DNA of 61,650 bases, filler included. It is 7 parts of 7 records of this genome, joined end to end, with 100 filler letters (N's around TTAATTAATTAA, not from the genome) between each part and the next. Parts side by side here need not be neighbours in the genome. Positions count along the whole stretch, not along the records: positions 35,095 to 42,143 come from SRR31147125_27850; 6 more parts are not named here. One strand, 5' to 3'. Numbering within the stretch: position 1 is the stretch's first letter; the number at the start of each line of letters is the position of its first letter. Both the position numbers and the translations under genes were made by a program. The notes beneath the pieces were generated by a model. That model was not told the DNA's origin. It did no database searches and worked only from the letters and a program-made list of their open reading frames with translations. Positions 5,446-46,312 of this stretch are shown piece after piece.

Positions 5446-7029
5446 ATGAAAAATGTTCAGGTATCACCTGGTGATAAAAAGAATGGTACTCTGTATACTG
5501 TACTTACCTTTATCATATTATTTATTACACTTAGCGCTTTTGCTTTTCTTTTATTTAGTTATTTGGAAAGAAGCATTTCGGATATTAAGCGCGTAGAATT
5601 AGAGAAAAAACTTACTAACACAGTTAATATCGAGTCGAATTTACTAGCAAATGAGTTCGATTCGGTTTTATCTGATTTGAATTTTTTAAGAAGAAGCTAC
5701 AGTGAAAAACTAGTGGATGAGCAGCTACTAGAAGATATTAAAGATGACTGGCGAATCTTCTCGGATAGTAGGATGATTTATGACCAAGTACGATTTATTG
5801 ACGTAAGCGGAAATGAGATTGTTCGAATCAACTATTCGGATGGCAATGCATATATTGTTGCTGAAGCTGATCTTCAAAATAAAAAGGATAGATATTATTT
5901 TTACGATGCTATTAATTTAAATGAAGGACAAGTATTTATATCAAAGCTTGATTTAAATATTGAAAACGGCGAAATTGAACAACCAATTAAGCCAATGATT
6001 AGATTCTGTGCACCGGTATTCCATGACTCTGAATTATTAGGTGTTATTGTCCTTAATTATCTTGCGGAAGCAATATTAAACGAATTTGAACATATTGCCA
6101 ATGTCACTGATGGAGAAATGTACCTATTAAATTCAAGTAGTTATTATTTGTCAAGTAACGATGATAATAAACTTTGGGCATTTATGTATGATGATAAAAA
6201 CGATATCAACTTCAAATCAGATTACGCCAATGAATGGAACAATATAATTGATGACGAAAATCTACTATATAGTCAAAATGGACTTTTTGTAGTATCAAGA
6301 ATTGCTCTTGAGGAAAAATGTAGTAACAATGAGAGCATTACAAGCGAAAATAGTATTGTTTTGGATGATGGTTCGTGGATAGTTGTTTCCCATATACTAC
6401 AAAGCGCATTAGATGAAAATGTAATTGCATCAAGCAATTCTCACTTATTTAAAAATATTTTGAAAAAGTATTATATATACTTTATATTTATCTTTATACT
6501 ATCTTTATTCGTGGCGTTTATTAGAAACATTACAAGAATGGCAAAAGAAAGAATTAAGTTTCACTCGGAGTATGATGGTTTAACAAAAGTATTGAACCGC
6601 AGAGCTGGATTAGAAAAGTTGGAATCAATTCTTCCTTCTAACTCTAGGAGGAGAACCCGAACTTGTATTAGTTTTATAGATATCAACGGATTAAAAGAAG
6701 TTAACGATAAACTTGGACATGATAAAGGTGATGAGCTGATCATCACTGTTTCAGACGTAATTAGCGATTCGATTCGTGATGAGGATTTTCTTATTCGCAT
6801 GGGCGGAGACGAATTTTTAATTGTTTTAGATAACGCTAATATAACTGAAGCAGAATCCGTTTGGGAAAGAATAGTTTTAACATTTGAAGACATCAATACA
6901 AAAGAGGATCGACCATATATTATCAGCGTAAGCCATGGTTTAGTCGATTTAGATGAAGGAAAAGATAAAGACATTGATGCTCTAATTAAACTAGCCGATG
7001 AGAAAATGTACAGTGAAAAAGAAGAATAA
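5446..7029 (+). CDS. Cache-sensor diguanylate cyclase
   Basis: TM, extracellular Cache-like region (QNKKDRYYF, KPMIRF), TM, then RMGGDEF. Confidence 0.9.
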   Translation: MKNVQVSPGDKKNGTLYTVLTFIILFITLSAFAFLLFSYLERSISDIKRVELEKKLTNTVNIESNLLANEFDSVLSDLNFLRRSYSEKLVDEQLLEDIKDDWRIFSDSRMIYDQVRFIDVSGNEIVRINYSDGNAYIVAEADLQNKKDRYYFYDAINLNEGQVFISKLDLNIENGEIEQPIKPMIRFCAPVFHDSELLGVIVLNYLAEAILNEFEHIANVTDGEMYLLNSSSYYLSSNDDNKLWAFMYDDKNDINFKSDYANEWNNIIDDENLLYSQNGLFVVSRIALEEKCSNNESITSENSIVLDDGSWIVVSHILQSALDENVIASSNSHLFKNILKKYYIYFIFIFILSLFVAFIRNITRMAKERIKFHSEYDGLTKVLNRRAGLEKLESILPSNSRRRTRTCISFIDINGLKEVNDKLGHDKGDELIITVSDVISDSIRDEDFLIRMGGDEFLIVLDNANITEAESVWERIVLTFEDINTKEDRPYIISVSHGLVDLDEGKDKDIDALIKLADEKMYSEKEE

Positions 7030-34994: not shown

Positions 34995-35094
34995 NNNNNN
35001 NNNNNNNNNNNNNNNNNNNNNNNNNNNNNNNNNNNNNNTTAATTAATTAANNNNNNNNNNNNNNNNNNNNNNNNNNNNNNNNNNNNNNNNNNNN
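34995..35094. other. Artificial contig spacer
   Basis: N run with TTAATTAATTAA. Confidence 0.98.
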
Positions 35095-35173
35095 AAAACA
35101 GAATATATTAGTATAAGATCAACATTTGGTATTACGTATGTAACCACTTTACGACGCTTTTTGAAGTGGACCT

Positions 35174-35336
35174 AAAACAAAAAACCGTTCATAGCTGAAC
35201 GGTTTTTTTGTTTTTTAATGAAACAGGTAGAGCGTTTGTAGACGCTTAGAAGAAGATGATTGATAATTACAAACCCCTTTATACAGAACCAATCAATGTA
35301 GAAGTCGCTCTCCCAAAATTTCATTTACCCTAGATG
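35174..35336 (-). ncRNA. Putative sRNA, copy 1
   Basis: Conserved stem-loop core 35226-35314, terminator 35174-35214, sigma54 motif upstream; homologous to copies 2 and 3. Confidence 0.65.
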
Positions 35337-35346
35337 TTACATATAA

Positions 35347-35445
35347 AGCAATTGCCAGACCAAAAAAAATGGCATACTGTTTATCAAAGACTTACAGCGT
35401 GCCACATTTTTTATACCTTCTCAATTTGGGAAAGACTTCCCGAAA
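35347..35445 (-). promoter_or_regulatory. Sigma54 promoter with IHF box and palindromic upstream site (copy 1)
   Basis: TGG-TCTGGCAA-TTGCT (35362-35347); TATCAA-AGAC-TTA (35382-35394); TTTGGGAA-AGAC-TTCCCGAAA (35425-35445). Confidence 0.65.
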
Positions 35446-35479
35446 CGAACCATTTTTTAAATAAATCTTCCTGACTCTA

Positions 35480-36226
35480 CTATTTATTTAACAGAGCCAT
35501 TACTTCGTCGTAACCTTCTAATCCACGAATATTATCGGCAAAATAACTCTCATCCATATCAATTCCACCCAACACTTTTAATCGATTCCAATCGGTCAAT
35601 GCTCCTTCTATATTTCCAAGTTCATACCTGCAAAGTCCTCTCATCAGCAATAAACTTTTATCGTAAGGCATATAACTAATCCCTTTTGAATAAAGCTTTT
35701 CAGCCTTGCGGCTTTTCCCTTTCTCTAATAGATGAGAGCTTGCTTTTGTGAAATAAAAACTTGCTTTAGACTGAAATCGTTCAGCTATATCTTCCATATC
35801 ATCCGCCTTTGCAAAAACCAATGAAACCTCTTGAGGCATTGTTACCGGTTTTCCATCTTTAATCCCGGGCCGCCACATTCCATCGGTTGTTTGCAGCACC
35901 CTAATTACTTCATTATCGATAACATCACAAACGCTGTTAATTATATCTACTTCAGTAACCTTTCCGGTTGGGCTAACCAAAAAGCTAACTACTACAGTTC
36001 CTTCTAAATAACAGCCGTTAGAGCTTTCAAGATAATCAACATTCCGATTCAGGTAATTTTTTAATCCCGATCGTTCTATCTCCGTTGCATAATTCATTAT
36101 CCCGGTAAAATGTGGCGGGGAAATTTCTACTTCATCAATATTTAGAGAAGCTACGGGTTTTTCGTTTTGAGCTGTACAAAAAAATGCACAGAACAATATC
36201 AGCAAAATTGTAATTAATGTTTTCAT
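35480..36226 (-). CDS. TonB C-terminal domain protein with TPR tail
   Basis: Signal peptide; GTVVVSFLVSPTGKV...WRPGIKDGKPV; TPR-like helices. Confidence 0.8.
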   Translation of the reverse strand: MKTLITILLILFCAFFCTAQNEKPVASLNIDEVEISPPHFTGIMNYATEIERSGLKNYLNRNVDYLESSNGCYLEGTVVVSFLVSPTGKVTEVDIINSVCDVIDNEVIRVLQTTDGMWRPGIKDGKPVTMPQEVSLVFAKADDMEDIAERFQSKASFYFTKASSHLLEKGKSRKAEKLYSKGISYMPYDKSLLLMRGLCRYELGNIEGALTDWNRLKVLGGIDMDESYFADNIRGLEGYDEVMALLNK

Positions 36227-36410
36227 GACTTCTAAATTTTGAGTTTAACAATTAATAACTTCGTCTTTTTTATCTTCCTCCTTTCAGTATTAAAAGATTT
36301 ATGAAGCAAGTTACGGCGAAATATTAGTGCATACTTATAACTGATGTTGCTGATACTTTCAATTATGTAGTAGTTGTTTCAATTATGTTGCCTATTGAAT
36401 TTAATTTCAC

Positions 36411-36566
36411 AAAAAACAGCCGCTCGGAAACGAACGGCTGTTTTTGTTTTGTAGAAAAGGTAGAGCTTTATTAGACGCTTAAAAGAAGATGATTGATATT
36501 TACAAACCCCTAAACAAACCAATTAATTTAGAAGTCGCTCTACCAGTATTTCATTTACCCTAGATA
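36411..36566 (-). ncRNA. Putative sRNA, copy 2
   Basis: Core 36459-36544, terminator 36411-36445. Confidence 0.65.
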
Positions 36567-36576
36567 TAGCATGTAA

Positions 36577-36674
36577 AGCAATTGACAGACCAAAAACATG
36601 GAAGACTGTATTTCAACAACTTACAGCATGCTACATTTTTTATGCATTTTCAATTTGGGAAAGACTTCCCGAAA
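36577..36674 (-). promoter_or_regulatory. Sigma54 promoter with IHF-like box and palindrome (copy 2)
   Basis: TGG-TCTGTCAA-TTGCT (36592-36577); TTTCAA-CAAC-TTA (36611-36623); identical 21-nt palindrome (36654-36674). Confidence 0.63.
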
Positions 36675-36794
36675 AGGAACACCAAATCCTATTTTTTCAG
36701 AAAAGGTTTTATCCAACTTAATTGGGCAATACAAGTGATATATATTGCGGTTAAATAGGCCTAATATTTGGCTCAATTATAAATGCTCTTTAAA

Positions 36795-37709
36795 TTACTT
36801 TTTCTCTAAATGGTTGGTGCTGTAATAAACAAATACACCCTCAATTTTTCCTTCTTTATCAAAATTATGTGTAATCATAAAAGGATAATTAATTTTTGTT
36901 CCATCCTTCCTTTTTTCTTTGTAAATCCACCACGAATAAACGGCGTAAGTATTACTTTTTTCATAATAAATACAATCGGGGTAACCAACCTGTTCCATTT
37001 TCACGTATTCCCTGTTTTCGAAACCTTTAACGATACGTTCTTTTACTTGTTTCAGTGTTTTCCATTCATCAATATTCATTGTTGAGTACCAAAATCTGGC
37101 TCTGGGGCTAAAATAACTTGCCCAGGTTTCGATATCTTTATTCATGTAAGCATTTAAAACTTTCCGGACAGTTACAATAAAAGGGTGATTAATATAGACC
37201 TTGCCATTTTCCTGTGTTGTTTGGCTATTACGGATTTCTTCGAACACATTATTGTTATAATAAAAATAGATAACATCAATCTTTCCTTCATCATTAAAAC
37301 GGTACAGATTATGGTAATGGATCTCGGTATTAATTCCTGTTTTTTCGTGTGTGCCTGAGAATAACAACCAATCCTGCACCCAATTACCTCCTTTCTTATA
37401 TTCAATAGCATCGGGATATGCAGGTTTATGATCCTGAATCTTTAAATTTACAAATGAACTGTTCCACCAATTTACTGCTCCTTTAAAATTTTCTTTTGGA
37501 ATGTGACTCATTTCTCCATTAGTAATACGATACACACTATCGGCAAAGTAGCTGATAAAGGCCTCCGCGTCTCCATTATTAAAAGATTTCCACATTACAC
37601 GGGTTTTGTCGATGTTTTCGTGCTCGGAATAAACCGTACCGCTTTTGGTTTGGGCATTTAGTAATGTTGCCATTAAAAATAAGGCCACAACGAATGTAAT
37701 CTTTTTCAT
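36795..37709 (-). CDS. Secreted tandem NTF2/SnoaL-like protein
   Basis: Signal peptide; two similar halves ending YRFNDEGKI and HNFDKEGKI. Confidence 0.72.
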   Translation of the reverse strand: MKKITFVVALFLMATLLNAQTKSGTVYSEHENIDKTRVMWKSFNNGDAEAFISYFADSVYRITNGEMSHIPKENFKGAVNWWNSSFVNLKIQDHKPAYPDAIEYKKGGNWVQDWLLFSGTHEKTGINTEIHYHNLYRFNDEGKIDVIYFYYNNNVFEEIRNSQTTQENGKVYINHPFIVTVRKVLNAYMNKDIETWASYFSPRARFWYSTMNIDEWKTLKQVKERIVKGFENREYVKMEQVGYPDCIYYEKSNTYAVYSWWIYKEKRKDGTKINYPFMITHNFDKEGKIEGVFVYYSTNHLEKK

Positions 37710-37894
37710 AGTTTTTATTTTTAGTAAAAAACTGGTGTAAACTTAATGGGTACATTGAGCCCAATTGTGTGGAAGTAAGTATTGGCTTTTAACTAAAAAA
37801 GCGCGCGTAAAAAGTATTACGTGCTTCAGGAAAAAAAGTTTTCTTTTTGCTAAAATCCGAAATTCTGAGGCCAGAAATATTCAGTTCGTTCTCT

Positions 37895-38047
37895 GAAAAA
37901 GAAAAAGCCATTCGAACTGAACGGCTTTCAAGAATATTTTGGGAAAAGGGTAGAACGTTATTATTATGGACGCTTAAAAAAAAATGATTGATGTTTACAA
38001 ACCCCTATTACAAAACCAATCAAAAAATAGAAGTCGCTCTACCCTAG
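37895..38047 (-). ncRNA. Putative sRNA, copy 3 (diverged upstream region)
   Basis: Core 37948-38044 homologous to copies 1 and 2; terminator 37895-37928. Confidence 0.6.
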
Positions 38048-38305
38048 TCTTTTATTTCAATTCAACTATAAAACTTACAATCACTGCCTTTTAGTATACA
38101 GGTATTGTATTTAATCTTTTTTCCTAAGATTTATCACTACTTAAAATGGGAAATGTTATAAAAATAGATGACTTATTTGAGAGTCCACTATTTCTGTATT
38201 TTTTAGGGTAGTTCAATTTACGTTTAATTTTACTAAAAGACAATAGGAAAGTAGATACTATAGAAAGACTAAATTTTTTGTGGACTTTAAAAGTAGAGGA
38301 AAAAC

Positions 38306-38686
38306 TTAGCAGACATTTCTTTCAGTATCATACTGGAAGGATATTCCCTTTAATAATTCCACTGCTTCGGCATACGATCTTAAATTGCGTTTAACTTGTA
38401 GAATAGTAAAATCGGGATCGGGATTGTCAACCATTTCGTTATAAACCGGGCACCTCATTTTATTTTTAGGGATTAGCAGTTCTTGTTTAAAGTTGTACAG
38501 AAATTGATTATGTATCGCTATCACATATTCAATTTCAGTTTTTTCCGATTTTTTACCATAAAATCTGGCATAAATAATATATACATTCCCATCGGGTAAG
38601 CCATAAAAACTTACCGGAAGATTGGTTGGGATATAGGTCATTTTAGACCGATGTATTAACCTTGCCACAGGTTTCATTGTGAACAC
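38306..38686 (-). CDS. Hypothetical protein
   Basis: 126-aa ORF, co-oriented with neighbours; no recognised motif. Confidence 0.55.
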   Translation of the reverse strand: MFTMKPVARLIHRSKMTYIPTNLPVSFYGLPDGNVYIIYARFYGKKSEKTEIEYVIAIHNQFLYNFKQELLIPKNKMRCPVYNEMVDNPDPDFTILQVKRNLRSYAEAVELLKGISFQYDTERNVC

Positions 38687-38900
38687 ATTTTCTGGTTTTA
38701 TCGGTTATAAAATTATCGAAACAATTAGTTTTTATGCACACCTACACGTTATCTATTTGTTAATTATACACAAGATTTACGACCCATATGCAAACAAAAA
38801 GCAACAAAAATAAAATTACTGACACAAATACACTCAACCACAATCACCTCATCACCTTGAATATCAACCAGTTTGCCATGAATCATTAGTAGAGCAAAAA

Positions 38901-38945
38901 AAATTGATTGTCGCAACTCGTTTTAGAAGAAGTGACAATCAATTT
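38901..38945 (-). terminator. Probable terminator of bglX
   Basis: AAATTGATTGTC...GACAATCAATTT inverted repeat followed by a U-run on the minus strand. Confidence 0.55.
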
Positions 38946-39020
38946 ATAAACTAATCGTATAATCAGAAAAGACTATACCTGGTAAATTTTTACAGAGTAG
39001 AAAATATATATATTCCTTTC

Positions 39021-41306
39021 CTATTTTAGAACAAAAGCTGCTTCGAGCCCCTCTGCAGAATTGGTGCCTACCCAAAGTTTAAATTCGCCGGCTTCTGCTT
39101 TCCATTCTCCCGTTGCGCCATAAAATGCAAGATCTTTTGCAGCTATTTCGAACGTAACAGTTTTTGACTCGCCGGGCTGAAGTAATATTTTCTCAAATCC
39201 TTTTAATTCTTTTACCGGACGAGCAATACTTCCTACCAAATCGCGAATATATAATTGAACAACTTCTTCTCCGGCAACTTTTCCACTGTTTGTAACAGTA
39301 GCAGAAATGCTAAGTTTTTCGTTTGCACTTATTTCTGTTTTCGATAACTCTAAATCGGAATAATCAAAGGTGGTATAACTTAAACCATAACCAAACGGAA
39401 ATAAAGGTTCTTTACTTTGGTCGGTATAATGCGACCAGAATACATTTCCTTCTCTGTTTGCAGGGCGTCCGGTACTAAAATGGTTGTAATAAAGTGGTTG
39501 TTGCCCAACGGCTCTTGGGAAAGAAACTGGTAATTTTCCTGCCGGATTATAATTGCCAAAAAGAATTTCAGCAATTGCATTTCCGGCTTCAGAACCAAGA
39601 TGCCAGGCTTCAACAATTGAAGGAACATTCTCAGCCATCCAGTTAATTTCAACAGGTCGGCCATTCATTAATACAACCACCACATTTTTGTTTGCAGCAT
39701 AAACCGCTTCAAGCAACTCTTGCTGCAATCCTTTTAACGAAATTTCGGTCTGGCTTCTTCCTTCACCACTTTGCCAGCAATCTTCGCCAAGAGCAATTAC
39801 AACTACATCCGATTCCTCAGCAAGTTTTTGTGCTTCTTCCATTCCCGACCTGTCGGTAGTATTAAACTCCAATTCGGTTAAAAACGAGCGTTCACTAGTT
39901 ACATAATCAGGACCTTTTGTAAATTTAATTTCAGATGTTTTGTTGACGTTATTTATGCCTTCGAGTAATGAAACCGCTGAGTTTGTGATAGCTTTTGCTC
40001 TCCAACTTCCCAGTGGAACATCTTTACTTTCTGCCAGCTCTCCAATAACGGCAATCTTCATCCCTTCTTTTTTCAACGGAAGCAGGTCATTCTCGTTTTT
40101 AAGTAAAACAATACTTCTTTTTGCAACTTCTTTCGATGCAGCAAGGTGTTCTTTACAACCTATAACATTTTTTTCTCGTTCAACATCGCAGTATTTGTAC
40201 GGATCATCAAATAATCCCAATTGAAATTTAACTTTCAAAATTCTTCGAACTGCATCGTCGATTAATGCTTCATCTACTTTTCCCTCTTCTACCAAAGTTT
40301 CAAGATTTTCTATATAAGCATTTCCTTCCATATCCATATCTGAACCGGCTGTAATCGCTTTATAAGCAGCTTCTTTTTTATCGGCAGCGGCTCCATGATA
40401 AATTATTTCACCAATGGAATTCCAGTCGGAAACCACAAAACCATCGAATCCCCACTCACCTTTCAAGATATCGCGTTGTAAGTATGAACTTGCGGTTGCC
40501 GGCATTTCATTAACTGTATTAAATGCATTCATAAAAGTTGCCACACCTGCATCAACACAAGCTTTAAACGGCGGGAAAACAATATTATGCAGCGTTGGAT
40601 CGCCAATTTGTACCACATTATAATCGCGGCCCGATTCGATAAAACCGTAGGCAGCAAAATGTTTGGCACAGGCAGCAACAGTTTTCTCGCTATCTAAATC
40701 ATCGCCCTGGAAACCTTTTACACGGGCGTAAGCCATTTTGGCTCCAAGATATGGGTCTTCGCCCGCACCTTCCATAAAACGGCCCCAGCGAGCATCGCGT
40801 GCAATGTCAACCATTGGTGCAAAAGTCCAGTGTAAACCTGCGGCGGCGGCTTCTGAGGCTGCTACACTTGCCGAAAGTTTTGCCAATTCCGGCTCCCAGC
40901 TGGCGGCTTCGGCCAAAGGAATCGGCGCCATTGTTTGATATCCATGTATTACATCGTAAGCCAAAATAAGTGGAATTCCCAAACGGCTACTGTCGACAGC
41001 CCAACTCTGAACATTACGTGTTGCATTTGCTCCCGTAACATTTAACATCGAACCCAGTTTACCGGCTTTAATCATATCATAAATAAACATGGAGTCCACA
41101 TTTTCAGGTGCAGGTCCGGTCATTTCCCAACGCGAAGTGTACTGGTTTAATTGACCAACTTTTTCGGTTAGTGTCATTTTGGCCAGCAACTTTTCAACTT
41201 TAGTGTCAATATCACTCTGTTGAACAGTTTTTGCACCGTAAGAATTAAGAGACATCAAAAAGCAGATGCCTAACACAAATATCAGTATCCTTTTCATAAT
41301 CAGCAT
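39021..41306 (-). CDS. bglX: GH3 beta-glucosidase
   Basis: DVIHG, RDARWGR, KHFAAYG, FVVSDW, SGEGRS, Fn3-like tail. Confidence 0.93.
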   Translation of the reverse strand: MLIMKRILIFVLGICFLMSLNSYGAKTVQQSDIDTKVEKLLAKMTLTEKVGQLNQYTSRWEMTGPAPENVDSMFIYDMIKAGKLGSMLNVTGANATRNVQSWAVDSSRLGIPLILAYDVIHGYQTMAPIPLAEAASWEPELAKLSASVAASEAAAAGLHWTFAPMVDIARDARWGRFMEGAGEDPYLGAKMAYARVKGFQGDDLDSEKTVAACAKHFAAYGFIESGRDYNVVQIGDPTLHNIVFPPFKACVDAGVATFMNAFNTVNEMPATASSYLQRDILKGEWGFDGFVVSDWNSIGEIIYHGAAADKKEAAYKAITAGSDMDMEGNAYIENLETLVEEGKVDEALIDDAVRRILKVKFQLGLFDDPYKYCDVEREKNVIGCKEHLAASKEVAKRSIVLLKNENDLLPLKKEGMKIAVIGELAESKDVPLGSWRAKAITNSAVSLLEGINNVNKTSEIKFTKGPDYVTSERSFLTELEFNTTDRSGMEEAQKLAEESDVVVIALGEDCWQSGEGRSQTEISLKGLQQELLEAVYAANKNVVVVLMNGRPVEINWMAENVPSIVEAWHLGSEAGNAIAEILFGNYNPAGKLPVSFPRAVGQQPLYYNHFSTGRPANREGNVFWSHYTDQSKEPLFPFGYGLSYTTFDYSDLELSKTEISANEKLSISATVTNSGKVAGEEVVQLYIRDLVGSIARPVKELKGFEKILLQPGESKTVTFEIAAKDLAFYGATGEWKAEAGEFKLWVGTNSAEGLEAAFVLK

Positions 41307-41351
41307 TATTATAAGTTATTGTACTTTTAACAATTACGTGCAAATATAAAT

Positions 41352-41379
41352 AAAAAGGCGGGAAACACCCGCCTTCTTT
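41352..41379 (-). terminator. Intrinsic terminator between the MFS gene and bglX
   Basis: Minus strand AAGGCGGG-TGTTT-CCCGCCTTTTT. Confidence 0.6.
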
Positions 41380-41398
41380 ATAAAAATATATATTCGTT

Positions 41399-42143
41399 CT
41401 AATTAGTACCTGATTTCGGTTTGCGAACAAGAATATTAAGAATAATAAATCCCACAACCAGAATAATTGGTAAGATTGTCATGTTTCGTAATGTAACTTG
41501 AGCTCCGGCTGTTTCAATTGATTTTCCCATAATTGGTAATACCATTGAAGTTGCCACAAAACCGGCTCCTCCTAAAATCGACATTCCTAGCGCTCCACTT
41601 TTAGGTACATATTCAGATGCAACACCAATCATGGTAGGCCAGAAATAACAAACACCAACTGCAAATACAGCTGCTGATAATACGGTTACAACCGGTCCGT
41701 TTGCAATACTTAAAAGGAATAATCCTAAAACAGAGAATATAGCTGAGCCTAATAATACACCTGGAGGATTCAGGCGATGAATTAAACCACCTGCGAAGAA
41801 ACGACCAACAGCCATTAATCCGGTAACAACGGCCAGTACAATCATTGGGTGAATACCATTATCGGCAAGCAAAGCATTAATCCATTGTGTAGTACCCAAT
41901 TCTGTTGAAGACGTAAGCAACATACACGCAAAAACAAACGGAAATAGCAATGTAATTTTATTTACTAATCTACCTTCGATAATAATTAATACAGTTATTA
42001 AAGCAACAATAATTAATGGAGTAGAATAATTGGCGGTAACCATTTCTGCAATTGAAGGAGTTGTAGCTACCAAAATCATAAAAATTACAGCAAGAGTAAT
42101 TGTATATGGCGCTCCAATATTACGCATCATTTCTTTATAACTA
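41399..42143 (-). CDS. MFS sugar transporter, 5' truncated
   Basis: TELGTTQWI, MAVGRFFAG, YFWPTMIG. Confidence 0.85.
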
Positions 42144-44278: not shown

Positions 44279-46312
44279 TTAGCCAAGCAAATCATTTTTG
44301 AAGGTTAGAATTATTTCTGTGCCTTCGTTTACTTTACTTTTTACATGAATTGTTCCACCGTTTTTCTCCGTAAACTCTTTACATAAAATTAAGCCTAAAC
44401 CACTTCCTTTTTCGTTGTTGGTTCCCCAGGTAGAGTCAAAAGCATCTAATTTGAACAGCTTCTGAATTTGTGCTTCAGACATTCCAACACCATTGTCCTT
44501 TATTATTAAGTTGGTTTCTGACGGATTCTGCGATACATTTACAGACACAAATCCTCCGGTTGATGTATATTTTATTGCATTAGAAATAATATTTCTAACA
44601 GATATACTCATGGTATTTTCGTCAAGCCTTAAAACCAAATCGTTGGGAGTTTCATTATTAAGTCTTATCCCTTTTAATTTGGCATTTGCATTATTATCAT
44701 TTATAACATCTTCAATTAAGTGATTGATATTTACAGGAACTTTAGAAATATGTATCTGACCTTTTTGCGATCTTGACCAGATTAAAAGCTTATCTAACAT
44801 TGAATGAGCAATTTCTGCCGAAGTACTTAAACTCGAAATAATATCTTTTCTCTTATTCGCATTGAAATCTTCAAAGTCGTTTTCCAGTAAACCCGAAAAT
44901 CCCAAAATGGAATTAAATTGATTTTTTAAATCGTGAGTAATAATTGAGAAAAGTTTATCTTTTGTAGCAATGGCTTCTTTTAATTGTGCATTTATTTCTT
45001 CAATCTCTGTATTTTTTGTTTCCAGTATTTTGTTGGTATTAATTCTTAACCGGTAATTTCTGTATAAAATTATGGAAGCCGTAAGAATGAGTATTATAAT
45101 TTCCACAAGAAAATACAGAATCGTTTGTTTCTTTCTTAATTCCAAATCCTTTTGCAGTTGTTCATACTCAAATCGTTCATTCTCTTTTTCTCTTTCATGC
45201 TCAAACTCTTTCTGAACCAGTTTTCTATAGTTTCTTTCACTTGTTATACTATCCTGAATTGTTTTAAATATTACGTGCGCTTCATAAGCTTCCTTAAAAC
45301 GTCCCAACTTGTAACACGTTTCCGACAGATTTTCTGTGCTCGATTCTATTAAAACAGGATTGTTTAATTGCTTTGCTATTTCATAAGCTTCTTTACTGCA
45401 TTTATAAGCTTCGGTAAAATTGTTTTGTTTGGCACAGAGCATGCCATAACTGGTTAGTAAAGAGCTTTTATTAACTAAATTACCGCTTTCGTTCGAATAT
45501 TGAAATGCCTTTTGGTAATACTCGTTGGCTTCCGACAGTTTATTGGAGAAATTATATACGTTACCTATGTTAACATAGCTTTTTTCTATGTCAGATTTAA
45601 GTCCAAGCAATTTATAAATTTCTAAGGCCTGCATATAATATTTCAATGCTTCATCATAATTTTCCAAACTTTTATACGCTACACCTAAATTATTTAACAT
45701 TTTCGAAACCAGTAATGTATCGTTTAACGATTCAAAAATTTGCAAAGCTTCCTGATAGTTGGATATGGCATGATTATAATCTTCCTGTTTTCTATAAATT
45801 AAACCAATATTATTATAGCAGATTGCAATATCCTTTTGTTGGTCTAATTCTTCATGAACCTCTAAGGCTTTATAGTATTCTTGAATTGCAGCTATGTAGT
45901 CACCTTTTCTATAATAGTAAACACCTATATTTCGATTGACTTTTGCCAGTCCATCATAGTAATTAATTTTTTCGCACAACTCTCGCGACTGTTCATATAT
46001 TATCAACGAACTGTCATAATCCTCAATTTGGTCGTAATAAATTCCAATCATTCTTAAACTATTTGCTTCACCAATATCGTATTTTATCGAACGCGATAAT
46101 TGAAGCGCTTCCTGAGCATTCTCAAATAGTTTATCATTATTTTTTATATAGAAATCAGATGCAGTTTTCAACAATTCCTGAACAGTTGCTGTGTCTGCTT
46201 TCGTGCTAATTTCATTTTCGCCTCTAACTTGCGCAGTAATAAAAAACAATAAAAATAAACACGAAATTATAAGAAAAGTTTTGGAGTTGACTCTCATTAT
46301 TTTTTTAAACAA
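44279..46312 (-). CDS. TPR-repeat sensor histidine kinase
   Basis: Periplasmic TPRs, TM, THDLKN H-box, HATPase (DNGVGM, GSGLGL); ATG start likely at 46297. Confidence 0.9.
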   Translation of the reverse strand: MFKKIMRVNSKTFLIISCLFLLFFITAQVRGENEISTKADTATVQELLKTASDFYIKNNDKLFENAQEALQLSRSIKYDIGEANSLRMIGIYYDQIEDYDSSLIIYEQSRELCEKINYYDGLAKVNRNIGVYYYRKGDYIAAIQEYYKALEVHEELDQQKDIAICYNNIGLIYRKQEDYNHAISNYQEALQIFESLNDTLLVSKMLNNLGVAYKSLENYDEALKYYMQALEIYKLLGLKSDIEKSYVNIGNVYNFSNKLSEANEYYQKAFQYSNESGNLVNKSSLLTSYGMLCAKQNNFTEAYKCSKEAYEIAKQLNNPVLIESSTENLSETCYKLGRFKEAYEAHVIFKTIQDSITSERNYRKLVQKEFEHEREKENERFEYEQLQKDLELRKKQTILYFLVEIIILILTASIILYRNYRLRINTNKILETKNTEIEEINAQLKEAIATKDKLFSIITHDLKNQFNSILGFSGLLENDFEDFNANKRKDIISSLSTSAEIAHSMLDKLLIWSRSQKGQIHISKVPVNINHLIEDVINDNNANAKLKGIRLNNETPNDLVLRLDENTMSISVRNIISNAIKYTSTGGFVSVNVSQNPSETNLIIKDNGVGMSEAQIQKLFKLDAFDSTWGTNNEKGSGLGLILCKEFTEKNGGTIHVKSKVNEGTEIILTFKNDLLG

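Follow-up and report, generated by a model that had tools for sequence, protein, structure and literature searches.

In Vibrio, the near-identical paralogous small RNAs (sRNAs) Qrr1-5, each ~100 nucleotides (nt) long, have sigma-54-type promoters and terminators, and qrr1 adjoins luxO. The enterobacterial GlmY and GlmZ are homologous sRNAs made from sigma-54 and/or sigma-70 promoters, with GlmY titrating a protein from GlmZ, and CrcZ and CrcY of Pseudomonas are sigma-54-dependent protein-sponge sRNAs of ~400 nt with repeated A-rich motifs. Within the Bacteroidota, the available text of two reports (PMC11697453, PMC7366714) describes FopS as an RNA of 65-70 nt that consists of a single-stranded 5' seed and a terminator and is made from sigma-ABfr promoters only; the former report gives 12-15 copies per genome, restricted to the Bacteroidaceae, and pairing of a single-stranded seed with start regions as the mode of action of the multi-copy FopS and GibS in Bacteroides. 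Here we describe an RNA element that occurs in three copies on the minus strand of the Bacteroidota contig SRR31147125_27850, which forms positions 35,095 to 42,143 of a 61,650-nt stretch of DNA joined from seven parts of one genome (hereafter the window). The element is vertically inherited, low in copy number, strand-specific and structured, and has promoter-like and terminator-like signals of its own. Judging from these features, we consider it fairly probable that each copy is a separate small non-coding RNA gene of ~100-165 nt whose product would act in trans as a regulator.

By analogy, the family would work most like Qrr or GlmY/GlmZ and, within its own phylum, like FopS. It belongs to none of these, because no model matches it and because fold, size and taxonomic range differ. 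On the same grounds it appears to be a new family within the bacterial multi-copy regulatory sRNAs. With Qrr it has in common several paralogous copies, a putative sigma-54-type promoter, a terminator, a conserved single-stranded region and a presumably additive dose. An earlier annotation made from the letters of the window (the sequence-only reading) had offered Qrr as a conceptual parallel, and the likeness turned out to be closer than it could have known, as most copies outside the founder locus described below have a sigma-54-like -24/-12 box. The differences are that there is no sequence or Rfam match to Qrr, that the phylum is another one and is without Hfq, and that here one copy has a predicted primary-sigma promoter, the closing stem is long and no activator gene lies in the flanks. 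GlmY and GlmZ are similar as homologous sRNAs whose copies or species variants have, or here are predicted to have, sigma-54 or primary-sigma promoters, but the sequences are unrelated, and protein titration is known for GlmY and not here. FopS and GibS, as far as they are described in the available text, share with the element the phylum, multiple paralogous copies, promoters and terminators of their own and a conserved single-stranded sequence, which serves them as seed; FopS, in the same text, is without a closing stem, whereas a 10-12 base-pair (bp) stem, P1, encloses an inner hairpin, P2, in our element, and size and taxonomic range differ as well. CrcZ and CrcY are likewise paralogous RNAs with sigma-54-type promoters, which are predicted here, and share a possible sponge role, whereas here one hairpin with a single G-rich loop takes the place of ~400 nt with A-rich repeats.

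The RNA family is undescribed, being absent from Rfam and from the literature searched. Rfam 15 gave no match at gathering score over the whole window, in agreement with the sequence-only reading, which had not recognised a known family. At E<=10, RNAI (27.5 bits, threshold 47) and GibS (RF04182; 22.7 bits, threshold 115) were listed, both over terminator hairpins and at chance level; membership of GibS was rejected on this score, and that of FopS by comparison with its description in the available text. The founder-type copy tested against Rfam (locus L139, 2800-3200) reached 25.4 bits at best, the threshold being 60. A tRNA or tRNA-like element was considered because GGTAGAGCG resembles a D arm and was rejected: ARAGORN found no gene in the window, and the same stem reads GGGGAAAGC in most homologues, so the resemblance is accidental. 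The literature search found no published description of the RNA, which lists in the supplements of papers may still include, and no sigma-54-dependent sRNA of Bacteroidota; the available parts of 2026 preprints on the mining of non-coding elements do not mention the RNA, and the Bacteroidota passage in each is unrelated.

Structure and conservation of the element

The three copies were recovered by sequence patterns and by a covariance model alike. The composite pattern GAGCGACTTCTA-gap-ATTGGTT-gap-AGGGGTTTGTAA matched exactly three times in the window and never in 100 shuffles, and a pattern of the loop and 3' arm, with up to three mismatches allowed, hit the same three sites (0.02 expected). 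The covariance model, run over the 61,650 bases with filters off, returned only these copies with 90.9-99.2 bits, the next best score being 19.5. They are the three minus-strand copies that the sequence-only reading had placed here, and the pairing of the ends and the inner stem that it had drawn are found in each of them. From its 5' end, a window copy consists of the P1 5' arm (GGUAGAGCG, pairing with CGCUCUACC), a conserved GACUUCU, the hairpin P2 (UGAUUGGU with AUCAAUCA), whose loop ends in an invariant AGGGGUUUGUAA, a variable pyrimidine-rich linker, an invariant AAGCGUC and the P1 3' arm. Across the family, the P2 loop displays an invariant AGGGGUUUGUAAA, and the single-stranded stretch 3' of P2 contains an invariant AAGCGUCC. 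In minimum-energy folds of single sequences, P1 is present in copies 2 and 3; in copy 1 the linker takes the place of the 3' arm as partner of the 5' arm, and P1 is not formed. In copy 2, P2 contains a single A-C mismatch, and the innermost position of P1 is a G-A.

Covariation supports this fold. In an alignment of 75 hits fitted to the model (62 distinct rows), 95.6% of the cells pair, compared with 37-58% after a shift of the partner column by 1-3 positions, and none of 500 shuffles reached the observed value. All 10 pairs of P1 show compensatory changes on both sides, as do 4 of the 8 pairs of P2, which is otherwise nearly invariant; covariation of this kind had been proposed in the sequence-only reading as a check on the RNA. 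Because that alignment was fitted to the model, and because MAFFT, applied to 99 sequences, placed the 3' arm of P1 out of register, the arms were also compared in an alignment-free test: among 37 P1 types, duplexes of a sequence's own arms had a mean energy of -16.6 kcal/mol and those of swapped arms -9.2 kcal/mol, and the own arm was the best partner for 18 of the 37. G-U occupies 172 of the 2105 cells (a count that includes a near-invariant G-U of P2) and A-C 13. The minus strand is fixed by this excess, by the terminators and by promoter-like boxes present in the sense direction only. The earlier argument that the substitutions themselves give wobble pairs on the minus strand is upheld overall but does not extend to the P2 mismatch of copy 2, which would be a G-U pair on the plus strand.

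Conservation is concentrated in ~60 nt from the 5' arm of P2 to AAGCGUCC, which barely vary among species, the P2 stem included, and seven loci, each from a different genome, have an identical 95-nt core. Among the most diverged copies, P2 differs, with A-U cleanly replaced by G-C in one instance, whereas AAAGGGGUUUGUAAA and AAGCGUCC are retained. Two metagenome copies (L098, 395-498, and L107, 3753-3856) have 7-nt tandem duplications, ATCAATC and ATCATCT, inside or just after the 3' arm of P2, so this region tolerates small insertions. A pseudoknot between GGGG of the loop and CUUC, which occurs to both sides of P2, was seen by eye and is not claimed, as any pyrimidine run pairs with GGGG.

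Distribution and the founder locus

A pattern scan of one genome per species gave five stretches, one of which (L004) was a true homologue; two of the others were inspected and were without the rest of the motif. The homologue belongs to a metagenome-assembled genome of an uncultured Draconibacterium sp. (NCBI family Prolixibacteraceae) with four copies. Model R1, built from P1 and P2, had 79 matches in 48 of the 151 genomes of the family-rank group of this genome, with 1-5 matches per genome and a single one in 31 of the 48. The same model had no match in 150 other genomes sampled from the order, and the broader model R2 none in 150 genomes sampled from the class, under strict filters with which large genome scans could miss weak relatives. 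A metagenome scan yielded at least 100 stretches, and R2, applied to 80 of these loci, identified 89 copies; a collection of viral contigs contained no match. In total, 102 distinct full-length cores were obtained, and local clusters of 2-3 copies were present in 14 sources. The family was found in one group of marine and sediment Bacteroidota.

A founder-type copy lies between rlmD and an ABC-F gene, in the same gap in many species. The open reading frame (ORF) upstream of it is divergent in 39 of 40 loci and encodes RlmD in the locus tested (TIGR00479, 341.9 bits). Downstream, L139 encodes an ABC-F ATPase of the ribosomal-protection-like type (NF000355, 426.7 bits), and an ABC-F-type Walker A motif follows 38 of 46 founder-type copies. 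In every founder-type locus inspected, a TAnnTTTG box belonging to the ABC-F gene itself lies between the terminator and the start codon of this gene. L105 (6534-13723) and L150 share the order rpoD, a gene for a 514-residue secreted protein, rlmD (divergent), the RNA gene and an ORF in the ABC-F position; rlmB follows this ORF in L105, the only locus tested for it, and L139 (436-5148), from which the ABC-F assignment comes, is without the 514-residue ORF. Of the genes flanking the founder copy, three act on the ribosome. Its 5' leader (for example L139, 2971-3008) repeats AAUGGUUGGUUUUAU, a sequence much like the P2 5' arm and the start of the loop, which could stand in for the genuine 5' arm in pairing with the P2 3' arm; the remainder of the leader folds into a small hairpin, and the changes seen in the 3' arm of this hairpin are compatible with wobble pairing.

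The other copies precede unrelated genes, in single loci that for a fasciclin protein and those for various secreted proteins. A sodium:alanine symporter gene is downstream of 4 of the 13 copies of a subclass with the box TGGCAY (L128, 1857-3824, PF01235; L031, L032, L033 and L045 are also listed), of none of the 78 copies of the founder (42) and other-box (36) classes, and of 1 of 30 copies with no box. Over all copies, the ORF next downstream is convergent in 32 of 126 cases. Since it is convergent in these and since the ABC-F gene keeps its own box, the RNA appears to be transcribed independently and is not tied to one downstream gene.

Promoter-like signals, 3' ends and the copies in the window

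Promoter-like boxes of two kinds precede the core, which suggests two promoter classes: a primary-sigma box on the founder copy and a sigma-54-like box on most others. Boxes were counted in 48 non-founder upstream regions, with the antisense strand, the downstream sequence, the region 600 nt upstream and shuffled sequences as controls. The form TGG-N8-TTG[CT] was present in 16 of the 48 regions, in none of 48 antisense and 47 downstream sequences and in 1 of 48 regions 600 nt upstream, with a shuffle mean of 0.5; for a looser -24/-12 form the corresponding counts were 31/48, 0/48, 0/47 and 4/48, with a shuffle mean of 2.0. With metagenome loci added, 55 of 92 distinct non-founder regions had a box; many upstream regions are related by descent, and the enrichment applies across genomes only. 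The sigma-54 consensus is TGGCAC(G), in full TGGCAC-N5-TTGCW, with GG at -24 and GC at -12. In the 55 boxes, the free positions after TGG favour C (29), A (35), T or C (40 and 12) and G or A (28 and 22), that is C-A-T/C-G/A, as in TGGCAC(G); the C at -12 is replaced by T in 34 of the 55, and the T at -14 is variable. The distance from the end of the box to P1 is 9-60 nt, and in a subgroup with 9-16 nt the predicted start is the first base of P1. All five multi-copy genomes tested have rpoN.

Founder-type copies are represented in 23 of 71 distinct upstream regions by a conserved leader and TAnnTTTG 35-55 nt before the core, which the available text of PMC7366714 gives as the -7 element of sigma-ABfr, the primary sigma factor of Bacteroidota. 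That text also describes a promoter of B. thetaiotaomicron, PM2, with elements at -10 and -30; its spacing differs from that of the -24/-12-like box, and as PM2 is known here from this description, the two may be identical. Copies 1 and 2 of the window carry the box TGGTCTG(G/T)CAATTGC. In copy 3 a TAnnTTTG with one mismatch was seen by eye and was not counted as evidence.

At the other end, at least eight T occur within 12 nt after P1 in 76 of 146 copies compared with 2 of 141 control windows, and many copies probably end as P1 followed by a U tail. Other copies, among them those of the window and of the founder type, have a separate hairpin added at the 3' end; the RNA would be terminated by a U-rich tail, by an additional terminator hairpin or by the two together. 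Thus, both a promoter and a terminator or U-rich 3' end, as expected of an sRNA gene, appear to be present. For the window copies a length of 155-165 nt is plausible; the other copies look nearer to 100-130 nt.

In the window, a terminator hairpin lies 10-25 nt after each copy (Table 1). The sequence-only reading had noted these terminators and had called them different in sequence; their presence stands, and they are diverged homologues with CCGTTC common to all three. The terminator of copy 1 is preceded by an A run and followed by a T run and so reads as a terminator on both strands, and that of copy 2 was absent from the listing of a simple terminator scanner and was seen by folding. The genes between the copies are indeed unrelated, as had been observed: a TonB_C and tetratricopeptide repeat (TPR) protein in one interval, a tandem SnoaL-like protein in the other. 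The conclusion drawn from them, that it was the RNA unit that had been duplicated, needs widening, as copies 1 and 2 also have ~130 nt of upstream sequence in common, which makes the duplicated unit larger than the core.

Table 1 Features of the three copies of the RNA element in the window
Feature	Position	Strand	Evidence or remark
Copy 1, core	35226-35314	minus	patterns and model R1, 97.7 bits
Copy 1, P1	35306-35314 with 35226-35234	minus	
Copy 1, P2	35288-35295 with 35257-35264	minus	
Copy 1, loop AGGGGUUUGUAA	35267-35278	minus	
Copy 1, AAGCGUC	35241-35247	minus	
Copy 1, terminator hairpin	35179-35208	minus	13 pairs; also in fold
Copy 1, sigma-54-like -24/-12 box, TGG-N8-TTGC	35348-35362	minus	~30 nt upstream of P1
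Copy 1, upstream stretch common with copy 2	35318-35447	minus	alignment; contains promoter-like box and GGGAA/UUCCC inverted repeat
Copy 2, core	36459-36544	minus	patterns and model R1, 90.9 bits
Copy 2, loop AGGGGUUUGUAA	36500-36511	minus	
Copy 2, terminator	36411-36440	minus	fold; 10-pair hairpin 36417-36440, then T run
Copy 2, sigma-54-like -24/-12 box, TGG-N8-TTGC	36578-36592	minus	~30 nt upstream of P1
Copy 2, upstream stretch common with copy 1	36548-36676	minus	alignment
Copy 3, core	37948-38044	minus	patterns and model R1, 99.2 bits
Copy 3, P1 (GGGUAGAGCG with CGUUCUACCC) and P2 (UGAUUGGU with AUCAAUCA)		minus	
Copy 3, loop AGGGGUUUGUAA	37995-38006	minus	followed by AAGCGUCC
Copy 3, terminator hairpin, T-rich tail	37903-37929	minus	11 pairs, 4 G-C; also in fold

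Several further observations concern the surroundings of these copies. The N runs around a TTAATTAATTAA linker at 35000-35095 mark the join of separate contigs, and copy 1 is ~85 nt from the contig end, beyond which further copies may lie. Just past the terminator of copy 1 (35144-35169, minus strand) there is a hairpin CCACUU/AAGUGG with CAAAAAGCGUC in its loop, a string identical to the conserved stretch that follows P2 on the 3' side in the family; related copies in two other genomes (L073 and L075) have this box downstream of them too. The hairpin may be what is left of a tandem copy that has decayed, or it may present the motif a second time with a function of its own. A GGGAA-GUCU-UUCCC inverted repeat (35421-35441 and 36650-36670, minus strand) lies ~70 nt upstream of the -24/-12-like box, the position expected of an activator site, and may just as well mark where transcripts of the upstream gene end. 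A GH3 glycosidase gene is located upstream in the window; elsewhere in the window are genes for a GGDEF diguanylate cyclase that has a sensor domain and for a histidine kinase that contains TPRs (5446-7029 and 44279-46312). In a Pfam scan of 16 window ORFs, none was related to sigma-54 or RNA binding.

Proposed function and competing explanations

In the mechanism we favour, the founder copy would be made constitutively, and the extra copies (up to four per genome), including copies 1 and 2 of the window, would be switched on by sigma-54 together with an activator, so that, in the manner of Qrr or GlmY/GlmZ, two inputs would determine the dose of one regulator. Its working surface would consist of the two invariant single-stranded motifs, which would base-pair with C/U-rich stretches of target mRNAs near their start codons, protein binding being a close second. 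Several results weigh against this interpretation. Duplexes of the two motifs with the start regions of 47 window ORFs were no better than those with 591 random windows (mean energies -8.2 and -8.6 kcal/mol for one motif and -7.1 and -7.2 kcal/mol for the other, start regions and random windows, respectively), in a comparison of low power. The conserved ~60 nt exceed a seed, and an RNA that binds a protein or a ligand would account for them better than one that acts by simple base pairing. Read-through effects are conceivable as well, since in 92 of 126 cases the ORF next downstream runs in the same direction. As to sigma-54, copy 3 is without a -24/-12 box, the boxes of copies 1 and 2 count as one event because these copies are duplicates, and within the window the -24/-12 pattern is at chance level (12 matches, 8.9 expected); six-frame translations of 892 kb of flanking DNA did not encode a sigma-54 activator with the GAFTGA motif.

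The near-constancy of the ~60 nt including P2, while P1 changes freely, is what a protein-binding RNA, a sponge or the RNA of a particle, would lead one to expect, with the P2 hairpin, the loop and AAGCGUCC as the recognition surface. The founder locus hints at a partner in translation: the copy lies between rlmD and the ABC-F gene, rlmB follows in L105, and the leader repeats a GU-rich segment much like the P2 5' arm. The lack of an mRNA target signal in the start regions of the window, in the same low-powered comparison, points the same way, and the available text of PMC11697453 reports an RRM protein that binds multi-copy sRNAs in Bacteroides. However, none of the non-founder copies has a linked gene for a candidate protein, the synteny with translation genes concerns one copy type and may be plain vertical inheritance, and the most diverged copies alter P2 and keep both single-stranded motifs, as seeds would; we regard protein binding as a possible but doubtful explanation. 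Less likely still is a cis-acting leader, a riboswitch or an attenuator dependent on a short frame, that would control terminator read-through in the manner of antibiotic-resistance ABC-F leaders. The order of promoter, structured element, terminator and, in the majority of cases, a co-directional gene resembles such a leader, as do the ABC-F gene behind most founder-type copies and the strong conservation of unpaired nucleotides, which recalls an aptamer. Within P2 and the loop there is a 9-codon frame, MIGFVFRGL, which 18 of 21 founder-type sequences have intact, and CCCC of the P1 3' arm could conceivably pair with GGG of the terminator. Against a leader, the frame is broken by stops or 1-2 nt indels in 3 of 21 founder-type sequences, 30 of 78 others and 3 of 3 window copies, no conserved antiterminator was found, and 180-190 nt separate each window terminator from the next start codon. 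The downstream genes are also unrelated (TonB_C, SnoaL-like, fasciclin, sodium:alanine symporter) or convergent, and the ABC-F gene has its own box, all of which speaks against a riboswitch or cis attenuator.

That the frame encodes a 9-residue peptide, or that the element is mobile or repeated DNA, is unlikely, and very much so in both cases. Of 99 distinct sequences, 66 have the frame, with some conservative variants (V to I or M, F to L, R to K), but it is broken in the remaining 33 and in all three window copies, consistent with the earlier statement that no ORF is conserved there; its start codon is inside the P2 stem, and synonymous positions are as invariant as the others, which indicates a constraint on the RNA. 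A miniature inverted-repeat transposable element (MITE), with the P1 arms as terminal inverted repeats, would account for a length of ~95 bp, for the inverted-repeat ends and for several copies per genome, clustered in places. Such an element had been expected, in the sequence-only reading, to reach tens to hundreds of copies; the low copy number found here, with most positive genomes holding a single copy, argues against it, as does the founder copy's persistence in the same rlmD/ABC-F gap across many species. The arms change compensatorily, where a transposase site would stay constant, and the prevalence of G-U over A-C points to selection on one RNA strand. Neither viral contigs with the element nor target-site duplications in the flanks inspected were seen. 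A MITE-like repeat was therefore rejected on copy number, covarying arms and conserved synteny.

The favoured interpretation of a multi-copy trans-acting sRNA bears on a phylum whose regulatory RNAs are known almost only from gut Bacteroides, its environmental lineages being nearly unexplored. Clear covariation, a core of unusual invariance, two predicted promoter classes, a conserved founder locus and cultured genera such as Draconibacterium offer an entry point for experiments. The element could be deposited as a new RNA family, and its alternative promoter could provide a handle on the poorly known sigma-54 regulon of the phylum; judged by the literature searched, control of an sRNA by an alternative sigma factor would be new for Bacteroidota. 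A more far-reaching version, which we put forward as speculation with little probability, is that the family constitutes the first multi-copy sRNA circuit of Bacteroidota under sigma-54 control, in which a constitutive founder in a ribosome-related locus is joined by up to four sigma-54-driven copies that raise the dose on a signal, and in which the almost invariant hairpin module of 60 nt has part of the translation apparatus, and not mRNAs, as its binding partner. If true, it would be a new way to tune translation in a phylum that is largely without Shine-Dalgarno initiation and without Hfq.

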